Source of the DNA: a virus
Reading direction: 5' to 3' (one strand)
Virus record (IMG/VR): IMGVR_UViG_3300037493_004064
Location: 23,737 to 87,736 of that record
DNA length: 64,000 bases
In this document: positions 32,761 to 64,000 of the stretch, one piece after another
Layout: each line of letters starts with the position of its first letter
Numbering within the stretch: the stretch's first letter is position 1
Made by a program: the position numbers and the translations under genes
The notes under the pieces: generated by a model
What the model saw: only the letters and a program-made list of their open reading frames with translations
Database searches by the model: none
What the model was told of the DNA's origin: nothing

Positions 32761-32767
32761 CTAAATA
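32761..32767 (+). promoter_or_regulatory. late promoter (CTAAATA) heading the glyco-enzyme cluster
   Basis: Intergenic, followed by AGGAG Shine-Dalgarno and ATG 32784. Confidence 0.65.
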
Positions 32768-32783
32768 CTCATAGGAGTGATAG

Positions 32784-33101
32784 ATGGATACCACACAATT
32801 AATCGCCGATGTGAAGGCGCGTTTCGCCCACAACTCAGCCAAAGCCTATCTCAAAGACAAATACGCCAGCAAACTAATAGTTGCCGAACAGGGTGGTCTT
32901 TGGACTGCTGGCCCCGAGTTAATAGCATTTCTTGCCGCCCAGAGTGACTTCACCATAGACGACACCGTAATTCTTATTGACAATTTTGATAATCCGGTAC
33001 AGGTTAATGGCCCATCTCTATTGGCCATTCTTCAGAAAACGTATAACACGGTGATGAACGCCTGGTACGCCGAGTGGAAAGAACTTGAGAGCAAGAGATG
33101 A
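32784..33101 (+). CDS. hypothetical protein (105 aa)
   Basis: Good Shine-Dalgarno; ATGA-coupled to the next gene. Confidence 0.7.
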   Translation: MDTTQLIADVKARFAHNSAKAYLKDKYASKLIVAEQGGLWTAGPELIAFLAAQSDFTIDDTVILIDNFDNPVQVNGPSLLAILQKTYNTVMNAWYAEWKELESKR

Positions 33102-33895
33102 GTCGAGGAGTACTGCTTTTTGCGTTTAACAACGAAAAGTTCAACTACTATGACATGGCCGTGGCAACGGCGAAGCGTGTAAATCACTTTCTTAATCTGC
33201 CTGTTACCATAGTAACGGATACAGAGTCATCGCGCCGGTGCATTCCGGTTTTTGATCAGACATTATTGGTACCGGCCGACAAGAGTAACCGACGAGACTA
33301 TTCAACCTGGATTAATAAGGGTCGCTATCGTGCATATGCTCTTAGTCCGTATGATGAAACGATCCTGTTGGATACTGACTACATGATCAACTCCGATACT
33401 CTGTTGAAAACATTTGACTTCTGTGATGATTTCTGTTGCCACGATACCACCAGTTTTTTGATGCACCCGGGTGTTCCTCAGGAAGTTCTCAGTGCCTATT
33501 CCCTTAACACTCTGTGGGCAACTGTGGTAACCTTTAGGAAAACAAGAAGGGCCGAACAAATATTTGGTTGTCTGGAAATGGTTCAGAAGAACTACGACCA
33601 TTACGCAAACATTCATAACTTCGTCGGCGGGGTATTTCGTAATGACTATGCCCTGACTCTGGCCCTACGGATAGTTAACGGACACTCCGAAAATAAGCAA
33701 GATATCATCCCTTGGAATCTTGTTCATGTTGGCAAGAACACTTCAATATTTAGAAATTCCGATGATGAACTCAACACTGAATATACTGTTATTTTTGACA
33801 GCTGGAAACGAGCCAAGATAAAGAAGGAGTATATCACTCTGAAGGATATGGACTTTCATTGTATGAACAAGGCTAACTTTATGGAGTTGATATGA
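33098..33895 (+). CDS. GT-A fold glycosyltransferase-like protein
   Basis: RGVLLFA...SPYDETILLDTDY (DxD motif)...WATVVTFRK...FRNDYA. Confidence 0.65.
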   Translation: MSRGVLLFAFNNEKFNYYDMAVATAKRVNHFLNLPVTIVTDTESSRRCIPVFDQTLLVPADKSNRRDYSTWINKGRYRAYALSPYDETILLDTDYMINSDTLLKTFDFCDDFCCHDTTSFLMHPGVPQEVLSAYSLNTLWATVVTFRKTRRAEQIFGCLEMVQKNYDHYANIHNFVGGVFRNDYALTLALRIVNGHSENKQDIIPWNLVHVGKNTSIFRNSDDELNTEYTVIFDSWKRAKIKKEYITLKDMDFHCMNKANFMELI

Positions 33896-34677
33896 CCCGC
33901 GGCTTTGTAATCCTGGCAGTTGATGCCGGCGGCACTGACTATCTGAAGTGCGCCCGAACGTTGGCCAAGTCAATTAGAACTTGTATGCCGAATGAATCTA
34001 TTACTCTCATATCTGATCATACTGAACCCGATGAATTGTTTGATACCGTTGTCCAATTACCACATGGTGACCTTGCCCCAAAGAGCGCATGGAAACTCAT
34101 CAACGATTGGCAAGTGTATGAAGCCAGCCCGTATGATTACACCATAAAACTTGAAGCCGACATGATTATCCCACGGTCCATTGAATACTGGTGGGACGTT
34201 TTATGTGGGCGTGACCTTGTTGTGAGTTCCACCATTAGAAACTTCAAAGGAGAGATATCAGATTGCAGGGTATACAGACGATTCATTGATGACAATAAGT
34301 TACCTGATGCATATAACTCCATAACCTATTTTAAAAAATCAGATGTGGCCAAGAAGTTCTTTGAAATTGTCCGTGATATATTTGAAAACTGGACGGACTA
34401 TCGCGCCTTGATGAAATGTTCCTCACAGGAAGAAGCCACTACTGACTGGGTGTATGCCATTGCCTGCCACATAATGGGCATGGAGAAAACAATGTTACCA
34501 ACCTTCACAGAAATGAGCATGGTTCATATGAAGCAATATGTTAACGGACTGCCACACGAAGACTGGACTAAGGTGTTGGTCACTGAGTTTCGCCCTATGC
34601 GTGTCAACTCATACATTCAGTTGCACCCGTTCCACTATCATCAGAAGTCATTTTCTGATACAATAGATCATGGATGA
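33892..34677 (+). CDS. GT-A fold glycosyltransferase-like protein (paralog of the previous gene)
   Basis: RGFVILA...SPYDYTIKLEADM (ExD)...YFKKS...TDWVYA...PFHYH.K. Confidence 0.62.
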   Translation: MTRGFVILAVDAGGTDYLKCARTLAKSIRTCMPNESITLISDHTEPDELFDTVVQLPHGDLAPKSAWKLINDWQVYEASPYDYTIKLEADMIIPRSIEYWWDVLCGRDLVVSSTIRNFKGEISDCRVYRRFIDDNKLPDAYNSITYFKKSDVAKKFFEIVRDIFENWTDYRALMKCSSQEEATTDWVYAIACHIMGMEKTMLPTFTEMSMVHMKQYVNGLPHEDWTKVLVTEFRPMRVNSYIQLHPFHYHQKSFSDTIDHG

Positions 34678-35008
34678 AAATAACTTTACTATAATCTGGG
34701 AAGCACCTAAAATCGTAAAACCCGAGTTTCGTTTATACTACGATGAAGCCGGTAAGGTGATTTGTTATACATGCGACACCACGTTGCCCGGTAACTTTGT
34801 CGTGGTAGATTCCTCAACTTTTGCCCAAAGTCGCCCTGATCTAAGAGTAGTCAATGGTAAACTAGTAGAGGGCATCTCGGCAGTTGTCGTCTCCAGATTA
34901 GTTCCGGGCCCGGGTATTAGGTGTGCCGCAGAAGATTTTAACATCGTCGTTGGTGATGATTACCAAGGCGAAACAATAACATGGAAATTACAAACGTATG
35001 AACTCTGA
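34670..35008 (+). CDS. hypothetical protein (112 aa)
   Basis: Overlap-coupled ORF; FRLYYDE.G..ICY. Confidence 0.65.
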   Translation: MDENNFTIIWEAPKIVKPEFRLYYDEAGKVICYTCDTTLPGNFVVVDSSTFAQSRPDLRVVNGKLVEGISAVVVSRLVPGPGIRCAAEDFNIVVGDDYQGETITWKLQTYEL

Positions 35009-35951
35009 TATAGTTGATGTTGCTGATTTAGATTGCGTATACCTAAGTTATGACGAGCCGCAGAAAGAAGAATTCTGGCTGAGAATTAAGAATATGGTGC
35101 CGTGGGCAAAGAGAGTTGATAATGTCAAAGGCTCTGATGCAGCACACAAGGCAGCAGGGGAAGCAAGCGACACAGAACGATTCATCCTGATCGACGGTGA
35201 CAACATGCCCGACGAGTCCTTCTTCAACATTCAACTGGATTTCACTGGTAAGGATGACACGTTTAAACTTGGGCAATTCCGTTGGAAAGCCATCAATAGC
35301 ATCAACGGGCTGCGTTACGGCAACGGGGGCATGTCCTCTTGGACAAAGACGTATGTACGCGAGATGAAAACTCACGAACATCAGGATGAGGGTGATGTAT
35401 CCAGGATTGCTGATTTCTGTCTGGACAGCAAAGACAATCTTTACTGGGCCATGAACGACTGCTACTCCACAACATACCCGAACCACACCCCGTTTCAGGC
35501 ATGGCGTGCCGGCTTCAGAGAAGGTGTCAAGATGTGTCTGGTCAAAGGCGCCCGTCCTACAGTAGACGAATTTAAGGATAACGTGGCCAGTCGCAACCTG
35601 AACAATTTGACTATTTGGCATAACGTCGGTGCAGATGTGGAGAACGGTTACTATGCGATGTACGGGGCACAGTATGGGACATACATGACTTTGCTCACCA
35701 ATTGGAATCCGCATGATGTGCAATGGTTTGATAATTACCCCATACTATGGGAAGATTTCCAGAAAACCAAATACAACGATGAATTTTTGTATCAGATGAG
35801 TGAGTCACTGAAAGATAAACTTGGACTGCCCATATGCACTTTGAATCCGGAGCAAAGCAAATTCTTTAAGCGACACTATAATGCTGATAAGTACAACATG
35901 GGTCCTCTGGTCAGAGAGATGGACGTAATAAGAAAGCACGAAGGTTGGTAA
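34998..35951 (+). CDS. glycosyltransferase-like protein (DGDN motif)
   Basis: YLSYDEP...VKGSDAAHKAA...F.LIDGDN...NGL.YGNGG...AWRAGFREGVK. Confidence 0.6.
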   Translation: MNSDIVDVADLDCVYLSYDEPQKEEFWLRIKNMVPWAKRVDNVKGSDAAHKAAGEASDTERFILIDGDNMPDESFFNIQLDFTGKDDTFKLGQFRWKAINSINGLRYGNGGMSSWTKTYVREMKTHEHQDEGDVSRIADFCLDSKDNLYWAMNDCYSTTYPNHTPFQAWRAGFREGVKMCLVKGARPTVDEFKDNVASRNLNNLTIWHNVGADVENGYYAMYGAQYGTYMTLLTNWNPHDVQWFDNYPILWEDFQKTKYNDEFLYQMSESLKDKLGLPICTLNPEQSKFFKRHYNADKYNMGPLVREMDVIRKHEGW

Positions 35952-37534
35952 TGCAAAAACAAGTAAAAGACATAATTTGGTTAACAGATATCGGGTCAGA
36001 TAGGATTCAGAATAACCCGGTAAATATTGACAAGGCAAAAGACCTACTGAATAGCACCGGCCCTGGATTTTGTCTGGCAAAGTTTACACAGGTAACGATG
36101 CACCTGGGCACTGGTATGACTCATGCGTGTCACCATCCTAGTCCACATGCTATTCCTCTTGAAGAAATAGAAAATAACCCTGCGGCTTTGTTTAACACGA
36201 AGCATTTGAAACAAGCAAGGAAGGAAATGCTTGCTGGTGGGAAACCGGCAGAGTGTGATTACTGTTGGCGGATTGAAAATAATAAGAGCCCTAGTGACCG
36301 ATACTTTAAAAGTCTGGAGCCATGGGCACTGTCAAAGCACGACGAGATTCAAGCCAGTGACCCTGAATCGGACTTTTTCCCAACGTATCTTGAGGTAGAT
36401 TTCAGTAATGTATGTAACTTCAAATGTGTGTACTGTGGACCTGAGTATAGCACCAAGTGGGTTGAGGATCTGAAACAGCATGGTCCAATAAAGTTGTTGG
36501 AGAACACACACCATGTTCAATGGGCACAGGGTTACCAAAAAAATCTTGATGATCTTGCATATAAGAACAGCGAGTTTAATCCTTACCTTGATGCATTCTG
36601 GAAATGGTTTCCTGAGGCATATAAACATCTCAAGGTGTATCGTATAACTGGTGGAGAACCGCTGCTGACTAAAGAAACATTTAGGAGTATGGATTGGTTC
36701 ATTGAGAACCCTAATAAGGATCTGGAATTCAACATCAATACTAACCTAAGCGCCCCTGATAAACTATGGGATGCATTTGTCAGCAAGATAAAGGTGATAT
36801 CAAGTAACCAATGTGTAAAGAAATTTACTGTTTTCACTAGTGTAGATGGATGGGGGAAGCGCGCCGAATATGCCAGACCCGGGTTAGATTTTGGGGTGTT
36901 GCAGGACCGCGTCGAGCAACTGTTGAAAATCGGTAACATTCGCGTTACCATAATGTGTACGTTTAACATTTTTAGCATTTCCAGTATTAAGGAATTATTG
37001 GAATGGCAAGTAGGACTAAAGAGACAATACAACAACAATGCACAGGGCGCAGATTGGGAAGTGGAAATGGGATTCAATTTAAATGGCACCGGTGATCCCT
37101 TTGCCATACGAAAGATGAAAAATCCTGACCATTACGCAACTGTTGGTATAGACACACCATACTTACGTAGCCCGACATGCCTTGATGCCCAGTACATCGA
37201 CCACAGTATCATACAAAAGTATCTGATACCGGCAATGAATTATGTAGCTGAAAACACAGCAACGCATACATGGAATAGCCATCAAGGATTTGAAGATTAC
37301 GAACTGGAAAAGTTCAAACGAATATGCCTACAGATAATGGGACACGATAAAAATAATGTGCAGAACGGAGACACCCGGGACACCATAGTAAACCGTGCTA
37401 AGTTCTTTGACTTCGTAAACGAGATTGACCGTCGCCACGGCACTGATTTCTTAGTGACTTTTCCTGAAATGACAGACTTCTATGAGTTGTGTGAACGAAT
37501 GAACAAAGAAGTCCGGGAAGGAAAACATGTCTGA
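35951..37534 (+). CDS. radical SAM protein with N-terminal auxiliary Cys cluster (twitch/SPASM-like)
   Basis: CNFKCVYC and GGEPLL; N-terminal C..K...CHHP...CDYCW; start at ATG 35951 (TAATG overlap). Confidence 0.85.
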   Translation: MQKQVKDIIWLTDIGSDRIQNNPVNIDKAKDLLNSTGPGFCLAKFTQVTMHLGTGMTHACHHPSPHAIPLEEIENNPAALFNTKHLKQARKEMLAGGKPAECDYCWRIENNKSPSDRYFKSLEPWALSKHDEIQASDPESDFFPTYLEVDFSNVCNFKCVYCGPEYSTKWVEDLKQHGPIKLLENTHHVQWAQGYQKNLDDLAYKNSEFNPYLDAFWKWFPEAYKHLKVYRITGGEPLLTKETFRSMDWFIENPNKDLEFNINTNLSAPDKLWDAFVSKIKVISSNQCVKKFTVFTSVDGWGKRAEYARPGLDFGVLQDRVEQLLKIGNIRVTIMCTFNIFSISSIKELLEWQVGLKRQYNNNAQGADWEVEMGFNLNGTGDPFAIRKMKNPDHYATVGIDTPYLRSPTCLDAQYIDHSIIQKYLIPAMNYVAENTATHTWNSHQGFEDYELEKFKRICLQIMGHDKNNVQNGDTRDTIVNRAKFFDFVNEIDRRHGTDFLVTFPEMTDFYELCERMNKEVREGKHV

Positions 37535-38960
37535 ACATCTAATAACCTGGAGAGATGAGCAACTTAACACCATAAGCAAAAGTTTCTGTCCGGCTAAATG
37601 GTATAATGCAAGTATCTACTTGGGTTTTGGATACACTGGCTCATGCCACCATCCCCTGCCACACCCAATTAACAAGGAAGAAATTTTAATCAATCCCAAG
37701 GCCATTCACAATACTGCACACAAGAAGGAAGTCAGAAAGATGATGCTTGAGGGTATCCGGCCCGCAGAATGCGCCTATTGCTGGAAAGTAGAAGGCATGG
37801 GAAGAAATAACGTCAGTGACCGAGTGTACAAGAGCATAATTTATGATAACAATGATATAAAGGCCATTAAGGATATGCCATGGGATGCCGACGTTGAACT
37901 TAAAACGTTGGAGATTAGTTTTGATCGCCAATGCAACTTTGCATGTAGCTATTGCAATGCCGGCTATAGTTCAACATGGTCTCAGGACTTACAGACAAAT
38001 GGAGCATATCAAAACTTCATTGCTCCTGGTGGCGGTGGCGGTGCATATCAAACTGATGGAAGCTGGGCAGAAGCAAATGGTAGACATCTTGACGATAATC
38101 CATACACAGATGCCTTTTTTAAATGGTGGCCTGAGTTGTCAAAGAGTTTAGATGAAATCCGGATTACCGGCGGTGAAGCCACTGTCAGTCAAAACTTCTG
38201 GCGGTTCGTTGATATTATGCACCAATCCGAGTCACCAAATATGCGCTTTGCTGTCAATTCTAATTTAGGGATGAGTGAAAAGGCCCTTGAGAAACTTATT
38301 AAAATTACCCACACCTTACCAGTAAAGGAGTTTGACTTATTTACCAGCAATGAATGTTACGGGGCACATGCTGAATATGTGCGAGATGGTCTTAATTACA
38401 AGCAGTGGAGAACCAATATGGTGACCTTCATGGATAATGCCAAATTTAGATCACTGACTATTATGATGACTATAAACAATCTTACGCTGTTCAGTTTAAC
38501 TGATTTCATTGATGATATGATTGAGTTAAAGAAGAAATACGGAGTAGGTAGGCCTCTGATGGATTTGAACATTCTGCGATGGCCCAATTATATGAGCGTC
38601 CTTGTTCTCCCTGATGACATTAAGAGTGAATGCCATGCACAGATTAAGAATTGGTTTGCCGATGAGCAAAATACCAAGTACCTGGAGCCGAACGAAAGGG
38701 CCAGTATTCAACGATTAATCGATTATATTGAGGTAGTCGATAAGGCACACATAAATACCACTGATGACAAGTCTCTGTTATTTCATGATTTTAAAAGTTT
38801 TTATACCCAGTATGACACCCGCAGAAGTAAAAATCTAATGGAGACTTTTCCTAGGTTAGCCGATTGGTATGAGAAAATAGAACTGAAAAAGATATTTGAA
38901 ATAAAACCGTTAAACCAGACTGGAATAACACAGTATGAATTAGGAGAGTACAAGGGATGA
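37527..38960 (+). CDS. radical SAM protein, paralog of the previous gene
   Basis: CNFACSYC and TGGEA; N-terminal CPAKW...CHHP...CAYCW; C-terminal D.RR......FP. Confidence 0.85.
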   Translation: MSEHLITWRDEQLNTISKSFCPAKWYNASIYLGFGYTGSCHHPLPHPINKEEILINPKAIHNTAHKKEVRKMMLEGIRPAECAYCWKVEGMGRNNVSDRVYKSIIYDNNDIKAIKDMPWDADVELKTLEISFDRQCNFACSYCNAGYSSTWSQDLQTNGAYQNFIAPGGGGGAYQTDGSWAEANGRHLDDNPYTDAFFKWWPELSKSLDEIRITGGEATVSQNFWRFVDIMHQSESPNMRFAVNSNLGMSEKALEKLIKITHTLPVKEFDLFTSNECYGAHAEYVRDGLNYKQWRTNMVTFMDNAKFRSLTIMMTINNLTLFSLTDFIDDMIELKKKYGVGRPLMDLNILRWPNYMSVLVLPDDIKSECHAQIKNWFADEQNTKYLEPNERASIQRLIDYIEVVDKAHINTTDDKSLLFHDFKSFYTQYDTRRSKNLMETFPRLADWYEKIELKKIFEIKPLNQTGITQYELGEYKG

Positions 38961-39616
38961 TTGAAAAAGTAGTTGGATATGGGTGCAGTTTTATGCAAGG
39001 AGACTCAGTTGCTCCGGAACTGACATGGGCTGCATTACTGGCAAAGAAATTTAAAGTCCCATTGCGGAATAGAGGCCAAAATGCAGGGTCAAACAAATTG
39101 GCCATGATTTACCTATTTGAGGATATATGCAAGGGCGATTACAGCAATACTCTGGTATTGTTTTCATGGACAGGAATACAACGGTCTACTTTTTGGTGCG
39201 AACAAAAAGATTACAAGAAATGGATTCCGGTATTACCGGGGCATGAATCACCTGACAAGATCATTGCAAACATGAACTCGGCATACTATGCTGATCTGTA
39301 TTCGGATTATGAGGCGCTGCACACCTCTTATATGCAAAAGTTGTCAGTTCAGGCTTTGCTGAAGGCAAAGAACATACCATATATGTTTGTAAATTCATTT
39401 ACCGAAGATTTTATCCTTTACAATGATGATACCATGAAATCCTTTGCTGAAAACTTAGACACAGACAACTTTTTATTTGGGTACGAGGATTCGATTTACC
39501 AGCACGTTTGTTTAAATCTGAAGATGGTTGCTGAGGATAATTTCCATCCAAGTATTATGGGCCATGAATATGTGGCAGATGCAGCGCATAAGTTCCTACT
39601 TAGGAAAAAAAGATGA
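38957..39616 (+). CDS. SGNH/GDSL-like protein (GCS variant)
   Basis: GYGCSFMQG...G..AGSN...SWT...R...NFHPS..GH. Confidence 0.62.
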   Translation: MIEKVVGYGCSFMQGDSVAPELTWAALLAKKFKVPLRNRGQNAGSNKLAMIYLFEDICKGDYSNTLVLFSWTGIQRSTFWCEQKDYKKWIPVLPGHESPDKIIANMNSAYYADLYSDYEALHTSYMQKLSVQALLKAKNIPYMFVNSFTEDFILYNDDTMKSFAENLDTDNFLFGYEDSIYQHVCLNLKMVAEDNFHPSIMGHEYVADAAHKFLLRKKR

Positions 39617-40428
39617 AACGATTTTTTGCTTTCGGGTGCAGTCTGACCAGGTATGCTTATGCAACTTGGGCAGATTTGGCCGCCGCCAACTTTGACGAGT
39701 ACTATAATTACGCCAAGGGCGGTGGTTCTAATACATTGATGATGGGCAGGCTGATAGAGGCTGATAATTATTTTGATTTTAATAAAGATACTGATACTGT
39801 TTACGTGATGCTCTCCGGAATAGGAAGATATAGTTATTACACATACGATAGGGGATGGATTACCAATGGTGATTTATATTCTTACCTGAGCAAAAACAAC
39901 AATAAGGATATGGAATTTTTAGTAAAAAATATCTATAACGATAAGGGGGCAATTTACCAATCCTGGTTAGCGGCACACCTAATGAAGAAGTTGCTTGTCT
40001 CAAAAGGTATACCACATAAGATATTATATGGAATTAATAACAGTAACTATTTGGTTCAGAATGAATTCAACGATGAAGAATCTATTAGGAAAGTTATGGA
40101 CATTGAGTCAATAGTAGATATAAAAACACCATTCAATGATTGGTTTAGATGTCCCGAGAACCTAAGGGCCGGGCCAGTTACTCCTAATTACACCGATGCT
40201 AATACTTTTGACGGGCACCCTTCACAGTTATTGCACTATAAGTTTCTGAAGAATTTTCTGCCTGAGTTTGACACTGAAATTACCAACAAGTTATTCACGT
40301 ATGTTGAATCTATTTTTGATGGTAGGAGTCAACATAAGCAGGAAACAACCTATAGGAATAAATTCTATAAAAAATTCAACAGGGCATTTACACACCCGCT
40401 TTTCGGACAGGAACATGAATTATGGTAA
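39613..40428 (+). CDS. SGNH/GDSL-like protein (GCS variant)
   Basis: FAFGCSLT...TWAD...AKGGGSN...DGHPS..LH. Confidence 0.62.
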   Translation: MKRFFAFGCSLTRYAYATWADLAAANFDEYYNYAKGGGSNTLMMGRLIEADNYFDFNKDTDTVYVMLSGIGRYSYYTYDRGWITNGDLYSYLSKNNNKDMEFLVKNIYNDKGAIYQSWLAAHLMKKLLVSKGIPHKILYGINNSNYLVQNEFNDEESIRKVMDIESIVDIKTPFNDWFRCPENLRAGPVTPNYTDANTFDGHPSQLLHYKFLKNFLPEFDTEITNKLFTYVESIFDGRSQHKQETTYRNKFYKKFNRAFTHPLFGQEHELW

Positions 40429-50981: not shown

Positions 50982-51463
50982 AATTAATTGCACACCGAGG
51001 ACTAGTTAATGGCCCTGATAGTAATTTAGAAAATCTACCTGGGCAAATATTGTTAAGTTTACAAGCAGGATATGATTGTGAAATTGATGTTAGGTATATT
51101 AATGGCAAATGGATGCTAGGACACGACGATCCAGATTTTGAAGTACCGTTTGAATTTCTCAAACAACCTGGATTGTGGATACATGCTAAAAATTTAGAAG
51201 CACTTTATGTACTGGGTGCTGAAAAAAGTTTAAATTATTTTTGGCATCAAGAAGATGATTTCACATTAACTAGTCATGGATATATTTGGACATATCCGGG
51301 AAAAGAATTAACTCATAATAGCATCATGGTATTACCCGAATTGAATGATCCTAAGTTTGAAAACTTACCAATAAATTGTTATGGTGTGTGTACTGCCTAT
51401 ATAGAAGATGGTATAAACAGACAATATTGTCTTATCAATCCAACCGCGCAGGGGGTCAAATGA
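50978..51463 (+). CDS. glycerophosphodiester phosphodiesterase-like protein (minimal)
   Basis: MKLIAHRG...EN...EIDV...LGHD...WIHAKN; start at ATG 50978 (ATGA overlap). Confidence 0.75.
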   Translation: MKLIAHRGLVNGPDSNLENLPGQILLSLQAGYDCEIDVRYINGKWMLGHDDPDFEVPFEFLKQPGLWIHAKNLEALYVLGAEKSLNYFWHQEDDFTLTSHGYIWTYPGKELTHNSIMVLPELNDPKFENLPINCYGVCTAYIEDGINRQYCLINPTAQGVK

Positions 51464-52566: not shown

Positions 52567-52574
52567 AGGTCAGT

Positions 52575-56365: not shown

Positions 56366-56790
56366 AACAACGTAGATATATTCAAACCCTCTCAGAATTA
56401 ATTGACCGTCTTAGCATTGTTCAATTAAAAGAGGTATTCATCACTGAATTTAAGGATGAATATGCCAAAGAAATTAATGACATTGTGCATGACATTCAGT
56501 TAATCCTAGAGGAATCAAACGGGAAGTTGACCGCAGAAACTATTCGTGCCATCGTAGTAGTTAGTCAAATTAATCTTCACATTTGGCACAACGAGTCCAA
56601 CTATCGCAAGGGTATCAAGGATGGTAACAATCTTGAGCTAACCCATGGGTTAAATGGCATTCGCAACACTGCCAAGAATATTATTCAAGAGGCAGTTGGT
56701 GGCCGAAAGGATTACAAGGTAGATTGTTTAGCTGCCGATTTCTCCTCATGGGAAATTAGTTGGGGTGGAAAAGATGAAGATAAGGAATGA
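56362..56790 (+). CDS. helical hypothetical protein of the kind found in sugar-biosynthesis loci
   Basis: TLSELIDRLSIVQLKE...NLHIWHNE...NGIRN..KN.I. Confidence 0.6.
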   Translation: MKQRRYIQTLSELIDRLSIVQLKEVFITEFKDEYAKEINDIVHDIQLILEESNGKLTAETIRAIVVVSQINLHIWHNESNYRKGIKDGNNLELTHGLNGIRNTAKNIIQEAVGGRKDYKVDCLAADFSSWEISWGGKDEDKE

Positions 56791-57616
56791 CATCCAGATT
56801 AGGGGAATAGCCTTTGCTGGATGCTCATTCACTTGGGGTCAAGGACTCTACTACTACAGTAATCTGCCAACTCTTAGTGAGCCTGGCAAGTTTAAGTTCC
56901 AGCCTGAACTATTAACTGCCCCGCAAATAAAGTACATGGAATCGGTGCGCTGGCCAAGGCTAGTTGCCACACATTTTAATTCATTTGAGTTGACCCAGCC
57001 GTTCAACGGTGGAGCAGTTTATACTATTCTTGGTTGGTGGAATACCTGCTTTAAAAATTTTCTGGATGGAGGTTCTCCGAAAAACCCCGAAGTTAGGTGT
57101 GATTATTCTGAGATTTCTCATTTGGTGTTTCAAATGACTCAGTGGCACAGAAGCCAAAAAGTTGTTCAGTTCAACAGCGGCGAACTTCAATGTTCTCATT
57201 TCGAACTATGGACTACCTACAAGGATGAGTTCTTTGTCTGGTTAGATAAGAATGGAATAACGTTAGATGAGTACGTTGATCAGGCCAAGAAAAGAGATGT
57301 GCGAGAAGTATCTACCTGGTTACAGAGTTTAGAACAGCGTGGCATTAAAATCTCAATATTGACTTGGCCCGCCGACCTGGTCCAGTATATTCTGGATGAT
57401 CCATGGTTAGCAGACCGATTTATTAGTTTTGACTACAATGGGTCGTCGTTCGATAGCATAGAAGGAATGATAGAACAAAATAAACACCTGGAAATAATCA
57501 ATGATTATGAATTTTTTGAAGTACCACCAATAGATCATCACCCATCGTTGGCATGCCAGCCGGTGATCGCCGCTGCTGTAATAAAACATATTGAAAAAAA
57601 TGAAATCAAAAAGTAA
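56774..57616 (+). CDS. SGNH-like protein, GCSFTWGQGL subfamily, copy 2
   Basis: AGCSFTWGQGLYYYSNL...QPFNGG...QMTQWHR...DHHPSLAC. Confidence 0.65.
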   Translation: MKIRNDIQIRGIAFAGCSFTWGQGLYYYSNLPTLSEPGKFKFQPELLTAPQIKYMESVRWPRLVATHFNSFELTQPFNGGAVYTILGWWNTCFKNFLDGGSPKNPEVRCDYSEISHLVFQMTQWHRSQKVVQFNSGELQCSHFELWTTYKDEFFVWLDKNGITLDEYVDQAKKRDVREVSTWLQSLEQRGIKISILTWPADLVQYILDDPWLADRFISFDYNGSSFDSIEGMIEQNKHLEIINDYEFFEVPPIDHHPSLACQPVIAAAVIKHIEKNEIKK

Positions 57617-58469
57617 CTGTTGTGTATCCAAGGCCATGGTGTTTGCCGGTTGTTCCTTTACATGGGGTCAGGGGCTGCACTATTATAGCAACCTACCAAA
57701 CATTCAGGAGCCACTACCGTGGCACTACGATTCTAACCTTGTATCTTTTGTTAACTACGAGTTTATAAAATCAGTTAGGTTTCCGAGAATAGTTGCAAAT
57801 CATTTTGGTTCGGTTGAGTTAACCCAACCGTTTAACGGAGGAAGCAACGCATCGATAATGGCCTGGTGGAACTCCTGCTTTGATAATATTGACTCGTATC
57901 AACAAAATGAACTAAGCATAAATTCATCAACTGGTTTGCCTCGGTACAAGTTTGATGAGGTATCACATCTGATCTTTCAGTTAACACAGTGGGACCGGGA
58001 CTTTACTACTATAGAGGTGGATGGTAAGGTATACGGGCCAATATCTTATGCTAATCTCATGTACGACCATCGGGAAGTCTTTCTCCGTTATTTAGAAAAA
58101 AATAACATGACTTTAGACGAGTACGTAGATAATGCAAATCAAAAAAATATGCAGGCTGTGAAAACCTTTTTACAGAAATTTGAAGACCATGGGGTCAAGA
58201 CCTATGTAATATGCTGGCCATTGGAAAGTGTAAAGTATGTCATGGAAGATCATTGGTTGAGCAAAAGATTAATTACACTGCACTTTAAGGAGTTAGAGTT
58301 TCCATCTATTGCCCACCTTATGGGAGCATCGGATCAATACCCAGTGCCTTTCCCGGAGATGAGCATTATGCGGGACGCCAGCAGTTTTGAGGTTACGCCA
58401 TCTGATATGCACCCATCACTTTCTTGCCACAAAGTGATAGCCGAAAGTGTTATTAAGCGGTTACAATGA
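57600..58469 (+). CDS. SGNH-like protein, GCSFTWGQGL subfamily, copy 3
   Basis: AGCSFTWGQGLHYYSNL...QPFNGG...QLTQWDR...DMHPSLSCH. Confidence 0.65.
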   Translation: MKSKSNCCVSKAMVFAGCSFTWGQGLHYYSNLPNIQEPLPWHYDSNLVSFVNYEFIKSVRFPRIVANHFGSVELTQPFNGGSNASIMAWWNSCFDNIDSYQQNELSINSSTGLPRYKFDEVSHLIFQLTQWDRDFTTIEVDGKVYGPISYANLMYDHREVFLRYLEKNNMTLDEYVDNANQKNMQAVKTFLQKFEDHGVKTYVICWPLESVKYVMEDHWLSKRLITLHFKELEFPSIAHLMGASDQYPVPFPEMSIMRDASSFEVTPSDMHPSLSCHKVIAESVIKRLQ

Positions 58470-59383
58470 AAAAAGTATCAATTTCCGATATTGAATCATT
58501 GGTGAATTTTGAAATCAGTGAGGAATGCAAAAAAGCAATCATTGACTATAATTTAGTTTATGAAGATTTATCTTTGCCTGAGCGTGATTCAGTCATATTA
58601 AGCATAATTAATTATCTTCACGGAGAGGTAGAATTCTCAGGACCACATCGGTTAAAACAGTGGGAAAGGGGATGGGAACACTCTCTTGCCTCCTTCAACA
58701 ATAAGAACGACATTGAACAATTAAAACCTGATTACTTCGGTAAATCAAGTATAGTTAGATGGGGCGGAGAATTTGTTCGCGCCAGAACCGAAGGTTTTGA
58801 TTTTAAACTTCTTACTATCTTCGTAGATTCGTATCTTCATAAGTTCGTCGGTTCTTCCTATGATAATCTGATTGAGTTTGGATGCGGCTCATCTTACCAT
58901 TTAGTTCGCTTCGGCGAAAGAAACAGAAATATAAATCTAATCGGCCTTGATTGGGCAAAGGCGTCCCAAGATATTATTAGTAAGATACAACTTACTGGGT
59001 TAAATAACAGATTAACAGGACATAATTTTGATTTTTACTCCCCTTCGTCGGACTTCAATATTCCAGCAGAGAGTGCCATATTTACGTGTGACGCCCTTGA
59101 GCAAGTAGGAGCAAACTTTAAACCATTTATTGATTTTCTACTGGTGCATAAACCCAAACTTTGTATTAATTTTGAACCAATTACTGAACTACTGAATAAA
59201 GATATTTTGGTTGATAAACTGTCATTGATGCATACTGAAAAGAGAAAATACTTAACTGGATATCTGACTTACCTAGAGCAATTGGAACACGAAAATAAAA
59301 TTGAAATTTTAATAAAACGGCGGTTATATTGTGGATCACTTTACTTGGAGCCACATTCTGTTGTAATTTGGAAAATAAAATGA
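58466..59383 (+). CDS. class I SAM-dependent methyltransferase
   Basis: IEFGCGS...GLDWA...FDF...ALEQ...FEPI. Confidence 0.75.
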   Translation: MKKVSISDIESLVNFEISEECKKAIIDYNLVYEDLSLPERDSVILSIINYLHGEVEFSGPHRLKQWERGWEHSLASFNNKNDIEQLKPDYFGKSSIVRWGGEFVRARTEGFDFKLLTIFVDSYLHKFVGSSYDNLIEFGCGSSYHLVRFGERNRNINLIGLDWAKASQDIISKIQLTGLNNRLTGHNFDFYSPSSDFNIPAESAIFTCDALEQVGANFKPFIDFLLVHKPKLCINFEPITELLNKDILVDKLSLMHTEKRKYLTGYLTYLEQLEHENKIEILIKRRLYCGSLYLEPHSVVIWKIK

Positions 59384-59904
59384 GTACATATAAAGATTCA
59401 CTAATTGGAGCCATGACGTTTCTTGGCAGCAAAGATGATACTATTTTCGTTGGTCAACAGATCATCTTCGCCGGTAACCCGATGAGCACCACCTTAGAAA
59501 ATGTTTCCAAGGATAAGATGATAGAACTACCTGTTATGGAAGAAACTCAAATGGGGATGAGCCTAGGGCTGGCAATTGCGGGCAACACGGTAATTACATT
59601 TTATCCACGTTGGGATTTTATACTCTCTGCGACTAATCAATTAGTAAATCATGTAAACACTTTCAGCCTGATGACCGGAAAGAAAGTTAACATGATTATC
59701 AGATTAGGTAAGGGCTCCGATAAGCCACTTGATCCTGGACACCAGCATAAAGGAAACTATCTTTCGGAATTTAAAACCCTTTGCCCAAATATAAAATTTC
59801 ATGATTTGACCAATGGTGCAATGATCGTGGATAGTTACGTCAACGCCTACACGGATGGTGGAGTCCATGTCATGGTTGAATACCCGGAATTGTACTCATC
59901 ATAA
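59380..59904 (+). CDS. TPP-dependent E1 beta/transketolase pyrimidine-binding subunit (short, 174 aa)
   Basis: IFVGQ...ELPVMEETQMGMSLGLA..G...NQLVNH...GHQH; start at ATG 59380. Confidence 0.8.
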   Translation: MSTYKDSLIGAMTFLGSKDDTIFVGQQIIFAGNPMSTTLENVSKDKMIELPVMEETQMGMSLGLAIAGNTVITFYPRWDFILSATNQLVNHVNTFSLMTGKKVNMIIRLGKGSDKPLDPGHQHKGNYLSEFKTLCPNIKFHDLTNGAMIVDSYVNAYTDGGVHVMVEYPELYSS

Positions 59905-59913
59905 GGAGAGAGC

Positions 59914-60012
59914 ATGTTTATTACAAAGTTTATTAAAAAAATGATACGAGAATACAAGTATCGTAAGCGCCTAAAGGAGATGCGAAAGCGCGACCCCTTT
60001 ATTTACAAATGA
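59914..60012 (+). CDS. small basic 32-aa protein coupled to the carbamoyltransferase (below ORF-track cutoff)
   Basis: AGGAG Shine-Dalgarno; MFITKFIKKMIREYKYRKRLKEMRKRDPFIYK*; ATGA overlap with 60009. Confidence 0.7.
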   Translation: MFITKFIKKMIREYKYRKRLKEMRKRDPFIYK

Positions 60013-61493
60013 ACTACATCGGCATCTCCTCAGGGTTCCATGACGCAGCAGTGAGCGTTATCGACCAATCCGGCAATATTCTCTTTGCCGGACACTCCGA
60101 ACGCTACTCAAAGCAGAAGCACGACAAGGAGTTAACTCAGTTGGCCGTGTGTAACGCCCTGGACTACATCACTGATGACTATGAAGTTCATTACTATGAG
60201 AAGCCTTGGTTAAAGTTCCTGCGACAGATACGAGCAGGCGAACCGCTAGATATGCGTACTCTATCCGCACGAAACATGATCGGGCGACTAAATTGGGTAA
60301 CTCTTGATAAACAGCCGATTCACACCCACAGTCATCACCTAAGTCATGCCGCAGCGGGGTTTCAGACAAGCCCGTTCACTGAGGCAACAGTGGTGATCAT
60401 TGACGCCATTGGTGAGTTTGAAACTATCACTATCTGGGATGCATCGTATGATGATCGTGGTCAGGCTCGTTACGAGAAACTCTGGAGCAAGACTTACCCA
60501 GATAGCATTGGTCTATTCTACTCAGCAATGACTAAGCGAGTAGGACTGCGCCCTCTGGACGAGGAATACATTCTGATGGGTATGGCAGCATACGGCACCC
60601 CGGTACATTACGCTGAATTACATGATGAACTTATGGAAGACAGCAGTGATTTATCGTTTGTTCATAATCTTCATACAGGTGTACCTGATTATTTCCTCCA
60701 AGGTGCCAATGACATGGACATTGCTGCATCAAGTCAATTGCTTGTGGAACATCTTATACAGAACGTGATGACCAGAGCCAAAATACTTGGCAGATCAGAC
60801 AATCTGGTATATGGCGGCGGCGTTGCACTGAACTGTCTGGCCAATAGAAACCTACATCAGAAATTCAAAAACATCTGGATCATGCCGAACCCAGGTGATG
60901 CAGGGTCAAGTCTCGGCGCCGCCGCGTTGGGACATGGTGGTAAAATCAACTGGCAGAACGCCTATCTTGGTTTTAACATTGACCGACCGTATCCTGTGAA
61001 CGCCCTACTTAGAGAACTGCTACACGGGAACATCGTTGGTGTAGCCAGCGGCCGGGCAGAGTTCGGTCCAAGAGCACTGGGCAACAGATCATTACTGGCA
61101 GACCCTAGAGGACCCTTGATCAAGGACAAAGTAAATGAAATCAAACGTAGACAGCAGTTCAGACCTTTCGCGCCAGTTATACTGGAGGAATTTGCTGATC
61201 AGTTTTTTGATATGTCTTGCGGCAGCAGTGATAACAGGTACATGCAGTTCATCGCTACTTGTCGGCGTCCTGACTTATTTCCTGCTATCGTTCATCACGA
61301 CGGAACTAGTCGTGTACAGACTGTACCCAAAGATGGCAGCGGAATCAGAGAACTACTTGAAAAATGGTACCTGATGACTGAATGCCCGATGTTGCTGAAC
61401 ACCTCGCTGAACATCCGCGGCGAACCAATGGTCAACACCGTCTCGGATGCTGAACGATTCTCAAAACTTTATGGGGTGCATGTATTCTCTTAA
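60009..61493 (+). CDS. O-carbamoyltransferase (NodU/CmcH/TobZ family)
   Basis: HDAA, HHLSHAA, GGVALNC, GDAG, EFGPRALGNRSLLADP, FRPFAP, NTSLN. Confidence 0.92.
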   Translation: MNYIGISSGFHDAAVSVIDQSGNILFAGHSERYSKQKHDKELTQLAVCNALDYITDDYEVHYYEKPWLKFLRQIRAGEPLDMRTLSARNMIGRLNWVTLDKQPIHTHSHHLSHAAAGFQTSPFTEATVVIIDAIGEFETITIWDASYDDRGQARYEKLWSKTYPDSIGLFYSAMTKRVGLRPLDEEYILMGMAAYGTPVHYAELHDELMEDSSDLSFVHNLHTGVPDYFLQGANDMDIAASSQLLVEHLIQNVMTRAKILGRSDNLVYGGGVALNCLANRNLHQKFKNIWIMPNPGDAGSSLGAAALGHGGKINWQNAYLGFNIDRPYPVNALLRELLHGNIVGVASGRAEFGPRALGNRSLLADPRGPLIKDKVNEIKRRQQFRPFAPVILEEFADQFFDMSCGSSDNRYMQFIATCRRPDLFPAIVHHDGTSRVQTVPKDGSGIRELLEKWYLMTECPMLLNTSLNIRGEPMVNTVSDAERFSKLYGVHVFS

Positions 61494-61496
61494 ATA
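61490..61496 (+). promoter_or_regulatory. late promoter (TTAAATA), 4 nt before ATG 61501
   Basis: TAAATA-GAGG-ATG, overlapping the stop codon of the upstream gene. Confidence 0.6.
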
Positions 61497-61500
61497 GAGG

Positions 61501-64000
61501 ATGCGAGATGTATTCTATTTCAACAAAAAACCAAACGTTCACCCCCGAGAAAAACCAGCTAAGGATTTAACAGATGCTCGGCAACAGGCTGGCACGGAGC
61601 ATTTCTGGATAATTAACGAACTATGTGATTATTCCGGATTTGACTGGGAATGGGACTTTGAGTTTTTACCGGACGAAGAAGTATGGGCCCAAGAACATAA
61701 CAATGTATGGCCGAGTCAACATCAAAAGGATAGTGGTACTTGGTTATGCCCAAAAGAACTAAGTGAAGTTATTATCTATAGGGCAGACGTTCAGCCTATC
61801 ATCAGAAAAAACCATGAGAATGACAATTGGATTCTGACTGACACAATTGACAAGTTTGCGTTTGATTTTAGTTGGCACCCTGATCCAACTGACCCGCCAT
61901 TCATATACGTATGGGGTAACGCATGGTTTCCCGCTGAACTTGGCTCAGTCATTGAGTATCACGTACCAGGTGCCACAGAACGAAAGTACATGACTGAGGT
62001 TGTTAAACTACTTCCAGGAGAAAACTGGATAGAGCAGATACTCATTGACAAATCATTCTTTGATCTTAGTTGGCGTCCTGATCCACGCGAACCGCCGTTT
62101 ATCTATGTGTGGGGTAATAAATGGATATCCGCCGAAGCATTCACCACGTTAGAATATCATTGCCCCGGGGCAACAGAGCGTAAGTACGTAGAATGGAATA
62201 TACCGCTTCTACATCAGATGGATAAGTGGAGAATCACCCAGCCGATTGACAGAACGAAATTCGACCTCACGTGGAGACCCGATCCGAGAGAACCGCCGTT
62301 TATCTATGTATGGGGAAACAAATGGGTATCCGCTGAGTTACAACCGACTCTGGAGTACCACGTACCTGGTGCCATAGAACGCAAGTACATGGACGAACTG
62401 GTAGAAGTGCTACCTGATGGCAACTGGAATGAGGTCCAGCCGATTGACCAGTCATCTTTTGATTTGTCATGGAGACCCGATCCGAGAGAACCGCCGTTTA
62501 TCTATGTATGGGGAAATGTATTTGTCCCTGGTGAAAGAGAAGCAACACTTGAACATCGCGTGCCAGGTGCCACGGAGCGCAAGTACATGGGGATAGTTGA
62601 TCTGGCACCTGAATGGGACCGATGGAAAGAACTTCAACCTGTTGATAAAAAATCATTTGATTTCAGATGGCGACCGGATCCTAATCTTGAGGAACCACCA
62701 TATATTTACGTGTGGGGTAATAAATGGATATCCGCTGAACTACAACCGACACTAGAGTATCACGTACCAGGTGCCACTGAACGCAAGTACATGGAAGAAC
62801 TACCTGTTGTACTAATGGAGTCAGATCGGTGGGTGGAGAGACAGCCGATCGTCCGGTCATTTGATTTAAGTTGGAGACCTGATCCGAGAGAACCACCGTT
62901 TATCTATGTATGGGGAAACAAATGGGTATCCGCTGAACTACAACCGACGCTAGAATATCATACACCCGGCGCCACTGAACGCAAGTACATGGAAGAGATA
63001 GTGGAAGTAGTACAGGATGCCAACTGGAATGAATCTCAGCCGATTGACCAGTCATCTTTTGATCTGTCATGGAGACCTGATCCACGTGAGCCACCATTCA
63101 TCTACGTATGGGGAAACGTATTTGTTCCTGGTGAAAGAGAAGCAACACTAGAATACACGGTGCCAGGTGCCACGGAGCGCAAGTACATGGGGATAGTTGA
63201 TCTGGCACCTGAATGGGACCGATGGAAAGAACTTCAACCTGTTGATAAAAAATCATTTGATTTCAGATGGCGCCCCGATCCTAATCTGGAAGAGCCACCT
63301 TACGTTTATGTATGGGGTAACAAGTGGATACCTGCTGAACTACAACCGACACTAGAGTATCACGTACCAGGTGCTACAGAGCGCAAGTACATGGAAGAAC
63401 TACCTGTTGTACTAATGGAGTCAGATCGGTGGGTGGAGAGACAGCCGATTGACAAGTCATCATTTGACCTCTCATGGAGACCCGATCCGAGAGAACCGCC
63501 GTACATCTATGTATGGGGAAACAAATGGGTATCCGCTGAACTACAACCGACACTAGAGTATCACGTACCAGGTGCCACTGAACGCAAGTACATGGACGAA
63601 CTGGTAGAAGTGCTACCTGATGGCAACTGGAATGAGGTCCAGCCGATCGTCCGGTCATTTGATTTAAGTTGGAGACCTGATCCGAGAGAACCACCGTTTA
63701 TCTATGTATGGGGAAACAAATGGGTATCCGCTGAACTACAACCGACACTAGAGTATCACGTACCAGGTGCCACTGAACGCAAGTACATGGAAGAGATAGT
63801 GGAAGTAGTACAGGATGCCAACTGGAATGAATCTCAGCCGATTGACCAGTCATCTTTTGATCTGTCATGGAGACCTGATCCGAGAGAACCGCCGTACATC
63901 TACGTATGGGGAAATGTATTTGTCCCTGGTGAAAGAGAAGCAACACTAGAATACACGGTGCCAGGTGCCTCTGAACGCAAGTACATGGGGATAGTTGATC
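61501..64000 (+). CDS. Trp/Pro-rich tandem-repeat protein (partial, at least 833 aa; not in ORF track)
   Basis: Hand translation is open from ATG 61501 (MRDVFYFNKKPNVHPREK...) to the window end. Confidence 0.9.
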   Translation, partial: MRDVFYFNKKPNVHPREKPAKDLTDARQQAGTEHFWIINELCDYSGFDWEWDFEFLPDEEVWAQEHNNVWPSQHQKDSGTWLCPKELSEVIIYRADVQPIIRKNHENDNWILTDTIDKFAFDFSWHPDPTDPPFIYVWGNAWFPAELGSVIEYHVPGATERKYMTEVVKLLPGENWIEQILIDKSFFDLSWRPDPREPPFIYVWGNKWISAEAFTTLEYHCPGATERKYVEWNIPLLHQMDKWRITQPIDRTKFDLTWRPDPREPPFIYVWGNKWVSAELQPTLEYHVPGAIERKYMDELVEVLPDGNWNEVQPIDQSSFDLSWRPDPREPPFIYVWGNVFVPGEREATLEHRVPGATERKYMGIVDLAPEWDRWKELQPVDKKSFDFRWRPDPNLEEPPYIYVWGNKWISAELQPTLEYHVPGATERKYMEELPVVLMESDRWVERQPIVRSFDLSWRPDPREPPFIYVWGNKWVSAELQPTLEYHTPGATERKYMEEIVEVVQDANWNESQPIDQSSFDLSWRPDPREPPFIYVWGNVFVPGEREATLEYTVPGATERKYMGIVDLAPEWDRWKELQPVDKKSFDFRWRPDPNLEEPPYVYVWGNKWIPAELQPTLEYHVPGATERKYMEELPVVLMESDRWVERQPIDKSSFDLSWRPDPREPPYIYVWGNKWVSAELQPTLEYHVPGATERKYMDELVEVLPDGNWNEVQPIVRSFDLSWRPDPREPPFIYVWGNKWVSAELQPTLEYHVPGATERKYMEEIVEVVQDANWNESQPIDQSSFDLSWRPDPREPPYIYVWGNVFVPGEREATLEYTVPGASERKYMGIVD
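61873..64000 (+). repeat. in-frame tandem repeat, at least 11 units of 195-207 bp (65-69 aa)
   Basis: W[RH]PDP codons start at 61873, 62071, 62272, 62470, 62668, 62872, 63070, 63268, 63475, 63670 and 63868. Consensus FDLSWRPDPREPPFIYVWGNKWVSAELQPTLEYHVPGATERKYM plus a variable linker. Confidence 0.95.

Follow-up and report, generated by a model that had tools for sequence, protein, structure and literature searches.

A soluble gene island behind virion genes

We analyzed a 64,000-nucleotide stretch of viral DNA (the window), which forms the last 64 kb of the 87.7-kb IMG/VR viral contig IMGVR_UViG_3300037493_004064 and whose second half carries a large island of glycan-related genes. The island comprises 32 open reading frames (ORFs), all on the + strand and encoding proteins of 105 to 833+ amino acids (aa), from position 32784 to the window end (63999); genes are referred to below by their start positions. 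Neighboring genes overlap at 29 of the 31 junctions (counted by longest-ORF starts), the two exceptions being gaps of 104 nt (before 60009) and 7 nt (before 61501). A first-pass annotation of this DNA had described more than 30 co-oriented, overlap-coupled genes here, in agreement with our count, and had put them directly after fiber genes. The second statement held in part: virion genes lie immediately upstream, separated from the first island gene (32784) by a 48-nt gap, but only one of them has a weak tail-fiber-like signature. We read the island as an enlarged member, variable between strains, of the glycan-gene islands located behind tail-fiber genes in aquatic T4-superfamily phages.

The contig was estimated to be 21% complete (CheckV), and the whole genome would therefore be about 400 kb long. 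The part of the contig ahead of the window encodes the major head protein, prohead protease, portal, gp46/47-like nucleases, a collagen-like tail fiber of >2038 aa and a gp55-like late sigma factor (301 aa; phrog_12791, E 7e-70). Window positions 1–32735 carry T4-type baseplate proteins (gp53, gp5, gp25 and gp6-like), a 5810-aa ORF and three further proteins. The T4 gp6-like baseplate wedge protein (8978–12352) showed ~33% identity to those of the Rak2-like jumbo phages CBB, K64-1, RaK2 and Phosso. Because of the baseplate genes, the gp55-like sigma factor, the Rak2-like wedge protein and the completeness estimate, the jumbo-phage context proposed earlier is supported, and the contig appears to be a fragment of a freshwater Rak2-like jumbo phage. 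Near-identical DNA was present in lake-water and freshwater-sediment metagenomes from 13 studies, and no phage record was matched when 19-kb and 12-kb parts of the window were searched by megablast. No tRNA genes were found in the 64-kb window. The 5810-aa protein is encoded by a single ORF (12360–29792). Residues 1–4000 match a family of 3324 positions, PHROG 10938 ‘virion structural protein’; Pfam gave no match, and the orthologue in a sister phage (G005, see below) shares 50% identity with this protein across 3756 residues. Besides, a 147-aa ORF upstream of the window (L079:1811–2254), between the baseplate-hub region and an SbcC-like gene, matches a ‘NAD synthetase’ PHROG and also homing-endonuclease PHROGs.

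Membrane segments and export signals were nearly absent from the island. No hydrophobic 19-mer at or above 1.6 was detected in 31 of the 32 proteins, the exception being 40422 with a borderline value of 1.62, and none of the 32 had a signal-peptide-like N-terminus. Similarly, profile searches with the 32 proteins matched no flippase, polymerase, exporter or initiating phosphoglycosyl transferase family, which bears out the initial remark that flippases, polymerases and obvious membrane proteins are missing. The families and membrane segments of a Wzx/Wzy- or ABC (ATP-binding cassette)-dependent surface polysaccharide locus were thus not found here. These data support the view that the island is a soluble gene set for building and transferring a glycan.

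Sugar-nucleotide enzymes, tailoring enzymes and transferases

An RmlC-fold 3,5-epimerase is encoded at 43956–44501 (Pfam dTDP_sugar_isom, PF00908, E 8e-35). It had been annotated as RmlC, and the fold assignment stands; however, its score against the RmlC equivalog profile TIGR01221 was 114.9 bits, under the cut-off of 155.75, and solved GDP-D-glycero-4-keto-D-lyxo-heptose 3- or 3,5-epimerases were closer (E 1e-36 to 1e-38) than dTDP RmlC (5e-25), so it is better read as a GDP-4-keto-heptose-type enzyme. All three short-chain dehydrogenases/reductases (SDRs) proposed before were recovered by profile. One of them (55427–56365) is of the sugar-nucleotide C4 dehydrogenase type, is 72–83% identical across related loci and matches the solved chain 6vo6 at E 1e-97; this chain, titled ‘putative sugar-nucleotide epimerase/dehydratase’ in PDB, is what we take to be the C. 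jejuni GDP-heptose C4 dehydrogenase (Cj1427). Profiles and solved-chain comparison revealed likeness to GDP-L-fucose synthase and GDP-mannose 3,5-epimerase in the other two, a GDP-L-fucose-synthase-like SDR at 46532–47524 and a GDP-sugar type SDR at 52575–53567. The longest ORF of the latter starts at 52524, and a start at ATG 52575 is suggested by alignment of the Rossmann motif.

Judged by these relatives, the Cj1427-like dehydrogenase, the heptose-type 3,5-epimerase and the two GDP-fucose-synthase-like SDRs may form a core for a GDP-heptose-type 4-keto sugar. In a 20-kb island of cyanophage S-SM2, a fused form of the thiamine diphosphate (ThDP) enzyme described below has neighbors with the annotations phosphoheptose isomerase and heptose kinase/adenylyltransferase; these neighbors, together with the 6vo6-like SDR, the heptose-type epimerase and the GDP-type SDRs, point to a GDP-sugar route. 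We infer the starting sugar, since no heptose kinase or isomerase lies within the window. Among known systems, SDR 55427 and epimerase 43956 are like the enzymes of capsular GDP-heptose modification in C. jejuni (6vo6, 7m14, 8dcl, 8dco and 8db5, presumably Cj1427/Cj1430-type enzymes). In contrast to C. jejuni, the genes here lie in a phage and not in a capsule locus, and a split ThDP enzyme, radical S-adenosylmethionine (SAM) enzymes and a carbamoyltransferase are added.

The minimal ThDP enzyme consists of two halves, as had been predicted. The alpha (PP-binding) half is a 221-aa protein (44459–45124; E1_dh 43 bits; phrog_34187 positions 2–200 of 405), and the beta (pyrimidine-binding) half has 191 aa (59329–59904; phrog_34187 positions 234–401; Transket_pyr 20 bits, under the Pfam cut-off). 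AviB1/AviB2 and similar proteins are E1-type ThDP enzymes that carry out C-branching of sugars in antibiotic pathways, and they are resembled by this two-subunit, E1 alpha/beta-like enzyme among nucleoside diphosphate-sugar genes. However, the subunits are much shorter here, covering E1_dh positions 7–168 of 300 and lacking the transketolase C-terminal domain, and the two genes are 14 kb apart (4–6 kb in most related loci), whereas Synechococcus phage S-SM2 has a single fused gene; the fused enzyme is also present in Prochlorococcus phage P-TIM68. No assayed member of the short split form was found in the literature searched.

Several other sugar-modifying functions were detected. Two adjacent twitch-domain radical SAM enzymes of 529 and 477 aa (35945 and 37527, together 35945–38960) are paralogues with 30% identity, and both exceed the cut-off of 170 bits for NF033640 ‘twitch domain-containing radical SAM protein’ (300 and 289 bits; E 3e-89 and 5e-86). 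A NodU/CmcH-type carbamoyltransferase is encoded at 60009–61493 (Carbam_trans_N, E 5e-38; Carbam_trans_C, E 2e-47). Both findings match the first-pass annotation, as does a nucleotidyltransferase, which profiles identified as a fusion of a HAD (beta-phosphoglucomutase-like) domain and a sugar-1-phosphate nucleotidyltransferase (NTP_transferase) at 49587–50981. For two of the three methyltransferases suggested there, profiles gave Methyltransf_24 and FkbM-type assignments (42725–43959); the third (58466–59383) is a weak case, a probable class I methyltransferase with TrmB-type matches under cut-off (E 0.004–0.02) and a GxGxG motif read by eye. No description of a ThDP/radical SAM/carbamoyltransferase cassette in phages was found in the literature searched, and a literature search on twitch radical SAM sugar enzymes, with a query that did not name phages, returned nothing relevant.

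Six SGNH-like proteins had been proposed, and the evidence differed among them. The adjacent SGNH/DUF6071-like proteins 38957 (219 aa) and 39613 (271 aa), which span 38957–40428 and have GCS and DxHP motifs, were backed by profile results: 38957, alone among the six, passed a curated profile (DUF6071, 40 bits, cut-off 27), and the family of 39613 was homologous to it (hhalign 95.7%). The N-terminus of 40422 had a weak DUF6071 match (residues 63–102). We assume that DUF6071 is a member of the SGNH clan; in the computed results this link consisted of a weak Lipase_GDSL_3 match only (E 0.0066). The remaining three are paralogues (54559–55434, and 56765 and 57591 within 56765–58469) assigned by motifs only. 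They share 38–42% mutual identity and invariant GCSFTWGQG, NGG and DxHP blocks, and their family includes at least 238 homologues without a name. Comparison by hhalign with the alignment of this trio (A1) gave no support for 39613 (1%), the 39613 family alignment A5 (2.5%), 38957 (6%) or the 40422 N-terminus (9%). Profile searches of solved structures with six alignments (A1, the SGNH trio; A2, GT-B; A3, the 142-aa protein; A4, the 61501 C-terminus; A5, 39613; A6, DUF7796-like) found nothing better than E 0.05.

About nine glycosyltransferases had been suggested, of which four are supported, one of them as a lead. A 478-aa GT-B glycosyltransferase is encoded at 45109–46545, and its AlphaFold2 (AF2) model (predicted local distance difference test score, pLDDT, 89.8) has the two-Rossmann GT-B fold. 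Foldseek matched this model to GtfA, SdgB and OtsA (E 1e-5 to 1e-3), and VIA to EXT1 (Z 11.2), T4 BGT (10.6) and FUT9 (10.5). Among the matches listed, all but 5dxf (Foldseek) and 9iqz (VIA) are glycosyltransferases or GT-B relatives, as classed by entry titles and known folds; 5dxf is a trehalose-6-phosphate phosphatase N-terminal domain, and 9iqz, a phage glycosyltransferase, was not placed. The 767-aa protein 40422 (40422–42725) is a fusion of the SGNH-like part with a C-terminal GT-B domain, whose residues 403–752 are 27% identical to 45109 (BLAST, E 4e-30); in related loci, each part has a gene of its own. An O-FucT-family glycosyltransferase is found at 53567–54607 (PF10250, 60.8 bits, cut-off 31.5). 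The fourth, 34998–35951, is paralogous to the domain at the C-terminus of 61501 family proteins (96.7% in hhalign with A4, E 3e-10); its atlas neighbor cluster was automatically named GT2-like (score 0.99), a lead toward a GT-A-like protein.

The other five are tentative. The 396-aa protein at 51376–52566 may be a GT-B enzyme like 45109, as it aligned with A2 over an E..EK motif common to both (45% in hhalign, E 2e-4). The weak paralogues 33098 (265 aa) and 33892 (261 aa), located at 33098–34677, are possibly GT-A/GT8-like, with a DxD-type motif seen by eye, 28% mutual identity over 99 aa (E 3e-5) and a phrog_1903 match for 33892. The paralogues 47514 (382 aa) and 48659 (317 aa), at 47514–49612, are DUF7796-like and 34% identical to each other, and DUF7796 was found in 10 of 21 family members. 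The GC content drops to 0.31, versus ~0.44 elsewhere, in a stretch (48001–50000) where these two genes lie and the HAD-nucleotidyltransferase gene begins. Because of this low GC content, and because the HAD-nucleotidyltransferase is 62–65% identical to proteins of the T4-like cyanophages B3, S-PRM1 and S-CAM9, the stretch is suggested to be a recent insertion into the island.

Three small proteins had little or no family information. Those of 105 aa (32784–33101, with a 59% identical orthologue in G005) and 112 aa (34670–35008) had no match in Pfam, PHROG or NCBIfam, and the 179-aa product of 50924–51463 (phrog_34507) is possibly GDPD-like, as judged by an HRG motif read by eye. A further 142-aa protein (56362–56790; also examined in loci L090, L098, L106 and L117) is conserved, with 65–86% identity across phage loci and 65–85% in a 15-sequence alignment, and no family and no solved relative were found for it. 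On other contigs, it occurs beside GDP-mannose dehydratase-type SDRs. We also found it in chromosomes of marine Flavobacteriales and Neomarinimicrobiota at 65–81% identity, where it adjoins housekeeping genes (IF-3, ThrRS, RecA, Obg, Adk and SmpB) and not sugar loci; the idea of a phage-only cassette was dropped for this reason. Among 45 loci from binned genomes, more than four window-gene matches were present only in L112 (8 genes) and L123 (6 genes). Of the contigs scanned, one (L124) has a gene for a protein like a phage nozzle and another (L130) has one for an HNH endonuclease.

The last gene (61501–63999), cut by the contig end, encodes a large repeat protein with a tandem array at 62267–63988 (198-bp period, 8.6 copies), each repeat being a 66-aa unit of the FDLSWRPDPREPPFIYVWGN type; the contig ends inside this array. 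Relatives of this protein end in a conserved domain of ~550 aa, the one homologous to 34998, for which more than 2558 homologues were found. The 120 listed are 60–84% identical (two identical copies aside) and 650 to 1900 aa long, a range that suggests a variable repeat number. The AF2 model of the domain (pLDDT 53) did not resolve the fold. When the G005 repeat protein was searched against phage records by tblastn, one record was found, with 13% coverage.

Related islands and their variability

A core of ~12 island genes recurs in 74 IMG/VR loci, as detected by tblastn of the window proteins. These loci were collected with the SGNH-trio alignment, so that this family is present in all of them by construction, and several are near-duplicates. 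The most frequent genes were SDR 52524 and ThDP beta (69 of 74 loci each), SDR 55427 (68), 40422-type (66), the 142-aa protein (62), 45109-type GT-B (60), ThDP alpha and SDR 46532 (56 each) and epimerase 43956 (54), followed by the radical SAMs 35945 (47) and 37527 (45), the carbamoyltransferase (30), 39613 (28) and 34998 (25); the remaining island genes matched in at most 6 loci or in none. Best matches were 73–86% identical for the sugar enzymes and 45–56% identical for transferases and SGNH proteins. Scans of viral contigs with the single proteins 45109 or 54559 gave no confirmed match. Other loci add GT7 plus laminin-G fusions, B12 and SPASM radical SAMs, 2-oxoglutarate (2OG) oxygenases, PhyH and aminotransferases, and they are flanked by different genes (cell-wall hydrolase, DNA ligase, PhoH or a collagen-like protein). 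The GT7 proteins (~394–480 aa, with beta-4-galactosyltransferase-like N and C domains) occur singly or in twos in L054, L057, L067, L077 and L032; two are adjacent in L054, L057 and L077, of which L077:19626–20810 has the C domain only, and 6 of the 8 scanned are fused to a laminin-G/ConA-like domain. Three of these loci (L057, L067 and L032) also encode prolyl-hydroxylase-type 2OG-Fe(II) oxygenases, and L054 encodes a PhyH-type dioxygenase.

One relative, G005 (102-kb record, 29% complete), is a sister phage whose baseplate wedge protein is 66% identical to that of the window. The two are colinear, with the wedge gene followed by the giant protein, three downstream genes, the island and the 61501 orthologue; within these conserved flanks, the island measures 28.7 kb here versus 13.7 kb in G005. 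In G003, a complete 335-kb genome (100%) of another lineage, the cassette directly follows two collagen-like tail fibers and a row of small virion-protein paralogues. Synteny was observed in related phages, with the same structural-gene order in G005 and collagen-like fibers ahead of the cassette in G003. Besides, a strain 95–99% similar to the window diverges just after 35953.

These islands correspond to the host recognition cluster (HRC) of pelagimyophages and cyanomyophages, a hypervariable glycan island (Zaragoza-Solas et al. 2020, PMC7029224). As the parts of that paper devoted to the HRC describe it, it is a large hypervariable island in the structural module by the tail fibers, in which glycosyltransferases, radical SAM cassettes and genes for deoxy sugars abound, and its gene content differs between close relatives. 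In the genomes of pelagi- and cyanomyophages, its place is between VrlC and gp14. The window island likewise lies inside the structural module next to fiber genes, contains glycosyltransferase, sugar-nucleotide and radical SAM genes, and varies in content. Given the gene order in G005, G003 and the HRC, together with the divergent strain, the island is fiber-linked in three lineages and variable between close relatives. In contrast, HRC phages are T4-like with genomes of ~150–200 kb, whereas the present phage is a freshwater Rak2-like jumbo phage, and the HRC sections of that paper, which read the cluster as host O-chain modification, make no mention of the ThDP/heptose core, the SGNH families or an all-soluble character. 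The island type is therefore already known, and what is new is an unusually large member in a Rak2-like lineage.

Expression timing and candidate acceptors of the glycan

TAAATA, the core of a late-promoter-like motif, had been noticed just upstream of four island starts, and we found it there at 32762, 46520, 52547 and 61491. The first copy (CCATCTAAATAC; core at 32762–32767, + strand) lies 22 nt before the first island ATG, inside the 48-nt gap. ATAAATA is located 12 nt before the ATG of SDR 46532, ATAAATAC is 28 nt before ATG 52575, and TTAAATA is 10 nt before the ATG of 61501. Within 45 nt upstream of the start, TAAATA was present in 3 of the 32 island genes versus 0.6 at random island positions (P(≥3) = 0.022), and the count rises to 4 of 32 (P = 0.0024) if SDR 52524 starts at ATG 52575. 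It was also found there for 12 of 29 non-island genes of the contig, including fiber, protease, portal and baseplate genes, and the head gene has the one-base variant TATAAAATA in its place. The full TATAAATA, the -10 element of T4 gp55-type late transcription, has one site in the window, at 8838, outside the island (3.8 expected). In G005, CCATCTAAATAC is kept before the orthologue of the first island gene while the flanking bases differ, and a perfect TATAAATA precedes the 61501 orthologue. Because of the gp55-like sigma factor, the placement of TAAATA and its conservation in G005, late transcription of the island is likely. Sigma-70 promoter-like sites (47 versus 48.4 in shuffles) and terminator-like sites (15 versus 15.0) were at chance level between 29 and 48 kb. 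Metatranscriptome contigs from two runs of one study were short and covered pieces of 29390–31783 and 33338–35953 and a few tiny bits; such RNA-library contigs carry no timing information and may include DNA carry-over, and uncovered parts are uninformative.

The reading we prefer, to which we assign slightly less than an even chance, is that the glycan is attached to the virion or fiber protein of the phage itself. A GDP-linked heptose-type (or mannose-type) sugar would be oxidized at C4 and then epimerized, the ThDP enzyme would add a short carbon branch, followed by reduction, and the product would be methylated, carbamoylated and (de)acylated; each step beyond the family assignments is our inference. 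Working in the cytoplasm at a late stage of infection, soluble transferases would then build up the glycan on a structural protein of the phage, resulting in a strain-specific sugar coat. The most plausible acceptor would be the Ser/Thr-rich collagen-like fiber or another fiber or virion protein. This fiber (G000:C1:3–6116, locus L078), cut by the contig start, contains SGTSGW-type Gly-X-Y and GTS-type repeats and has 40.6% Ser+Thr, compared with 17–27% in other structural proteins and 8–15% in island enzymes, and it is a candidate for the Ser/Thr-rich virion protein that the first-pass annotation had postulated as acceptor. Together, the position of the island, the late-like motifs, the soluble machinery, the recurrent fiber link and this fiber make a virion or fiber target plausible from the genes. 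Virion glycoproteins were also reported in jumbo phage XacN1 (PMC5852040).

Several observations weigh against a virion target. TAAATA is not enriched in number (50 sites versus 53.3 +/- 7.2 in shuffles), none of the four island sites has the full TATAAATA but the core alone, and the case for late timing is built on motifs and gene position. The GT-B neighbors of 45109 act on protein, DNA and glycan alike, and their Z scores of 9–11 are middling; 5 of the 9 glycosyltransferase calls and 4 of the 6 SGNH calls have weak evidence or motifs behind them. DNA ligase and PhoH flank the cassette in other loci. Homologous enzymes also occur in the S-SM2 island (143.6–163.3 kb), far from fibers and beside tRNA, pstS and phoA. 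Soluble transferases could use host lipid-linked intermediates and host export. Finally, the only reading of such islands in print, as given in the HRC sections of PMC7029224, is host O-chain modification.

The last points lead to an alternative in which the phage remodels the host surface: its GDP-sugar and soluble transferases would act on host lipid-linked O-antigen or capsule intermediates, and a host flippase, polymerase or ABC exporter would deliver the product, for example to block superinfection or trapping of progeny on debris. This is what the relevant passages of PMC7029224 and PMC12801897 propose for pelagimyophage and cyanomyophage islands. The closest solved enzymes come from capsule heptose pathways, the pstS and phoA genes next to the related S-SM2 genes are host-type, the S-SM2 island includes a gene with the annotation ‘capsular polysaccharide biosynthesis protein’, the bacterial polysaccharide locus L125, which also encodes a flippase and an initiating transferase, contains a homologue of the 142-aa protein, and the variability of the island fits equally well. 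However, no initiating transferase, flippase, polymerase or membrane protein was found among the 32 genes, the block lies in the structural module behind late-promoter-like motifs, which would be odd timing for a cell near lysis, and the fiber-gene link recurs in three lineages. On balance, we consider host-surface remodeling rather unlikely, and clearly more probable than the two explanations that follow.

The enzyme mix itself suggests another possibility, a decorated oligosaccharide or glycoconjugate that stays off the virion (a small molecule, or a host or phage non-structural protein), similar to aminoglycoside or nucleoside antibiotics. A carbamoyltransferase, twitch radical SAMs, an E1-type ThDP enzyme, deoxy-sugar SDRs and methyltransferases would be typical for it, and B12/SPASM radical SAMs, 2OG oxygenases, PhyH and aminotransferases are added in related loci. 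Profile searches, however, recognized no scaffold-forming enzyme (cyclitol, nucleoside or peptide), and the many transferases and the recurrent fiber-adjacent position point to a macromolecular acceptor, which makes this other cytoplasmic target improbable. Hypermodification of DNA, with sugars on modified bases blocking restriction, would agree with the T4 beta- and alpha-glucosyltransferases among the fold neighbors of 45109 (Z 10–10.6) and with the diverse DNA glycans made by viral transferases (bioRxiv 10.1101/2023.12.21.572611). However, both position and promoter motifs are late and structural. Besides, no ThyA-fold hydroxymethylase (PF00303) was found in the 87.7-kb contig or in the complete cassette-bearing G003, while G002 had one match; this agrees with the first-pass annotation as far as the contig goes, and it is weak evidence because the contig represents only 21% of the genome. 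To our knowledge, a pathway of 30 genes for a branched sugar that is tailored with acyl, carbamoyl and methyl groups also far exceeds known DNA glycans. We regard a DNA target as very improbable.

A virion or fiber glycan remains our preferred reading, and precedents for it exist. Capsid and tail-tube O-glycans were described in mycobacteriophages (Freeman et al. 2023, as cited in PMC12619734 and PMC12801897), and glycans of the giant virus PBCV-1 are mentioned in PMC5852040. As these sources present them, such systems share with the present one virus-encoded soluble transferases by structural genes and a reading as glycan shield or adhesin. The actinophage systems consist of few genes, whereas the system described here, known from its genes alone, has ~30 and its own sugar pathway, a scale nearer to giant viruses. 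A Thr/Ser-rich, collagen-like Gly-X-Y candidate acceptor that accompanies a dedicated pathway for a rare methylated or acylated deoxy sugar also has a bacterial counterpart. BclA of Bacillus anthracis is a collagen-like spore surface fiber glycosylated with anthrose; it belongs to the spore of a bacterium, whereas here the fiber is that of a phage and its link to the glycan is a presumed one.

In its most extended form, a proposal that we hold tentatively and with less confidence than the virion target as such, aquatic jumbo phages would coat fibers or whole particles with a strain-specific glycan, in which a C-branched sugar of the heptose type would bear carbamoyl, methyl and acyl groups and all the enzymes making it would be viral and cytoplasmic. 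The island would then be a swappable ‘phage serotype’ locus and a phage counterpart of the giant-virus glycan machinery, and novel sugar chemistry would be expected of three components, namely the split mini-ThDP enzyme, the 142-aa protein and the twitch radical SAMs. Should the particle carry the glycan, a variable sugar coat would exist on large environmental phages, and this would bear on host recognition, adsorption to non-hosts, grazing and recognition by antibodies or lectins, and the ‘lipopolysaccharide-like auxiliary genes’ of aquatic phages would have to be read differently. Whatever the target, the core of heptose-type dehydrogenase and epimerase, split mini-ThDP enzyme, twitch radical SAMs and 142-aa protein represents a putative sugar pathway that recurs in dozens of viral contigs.

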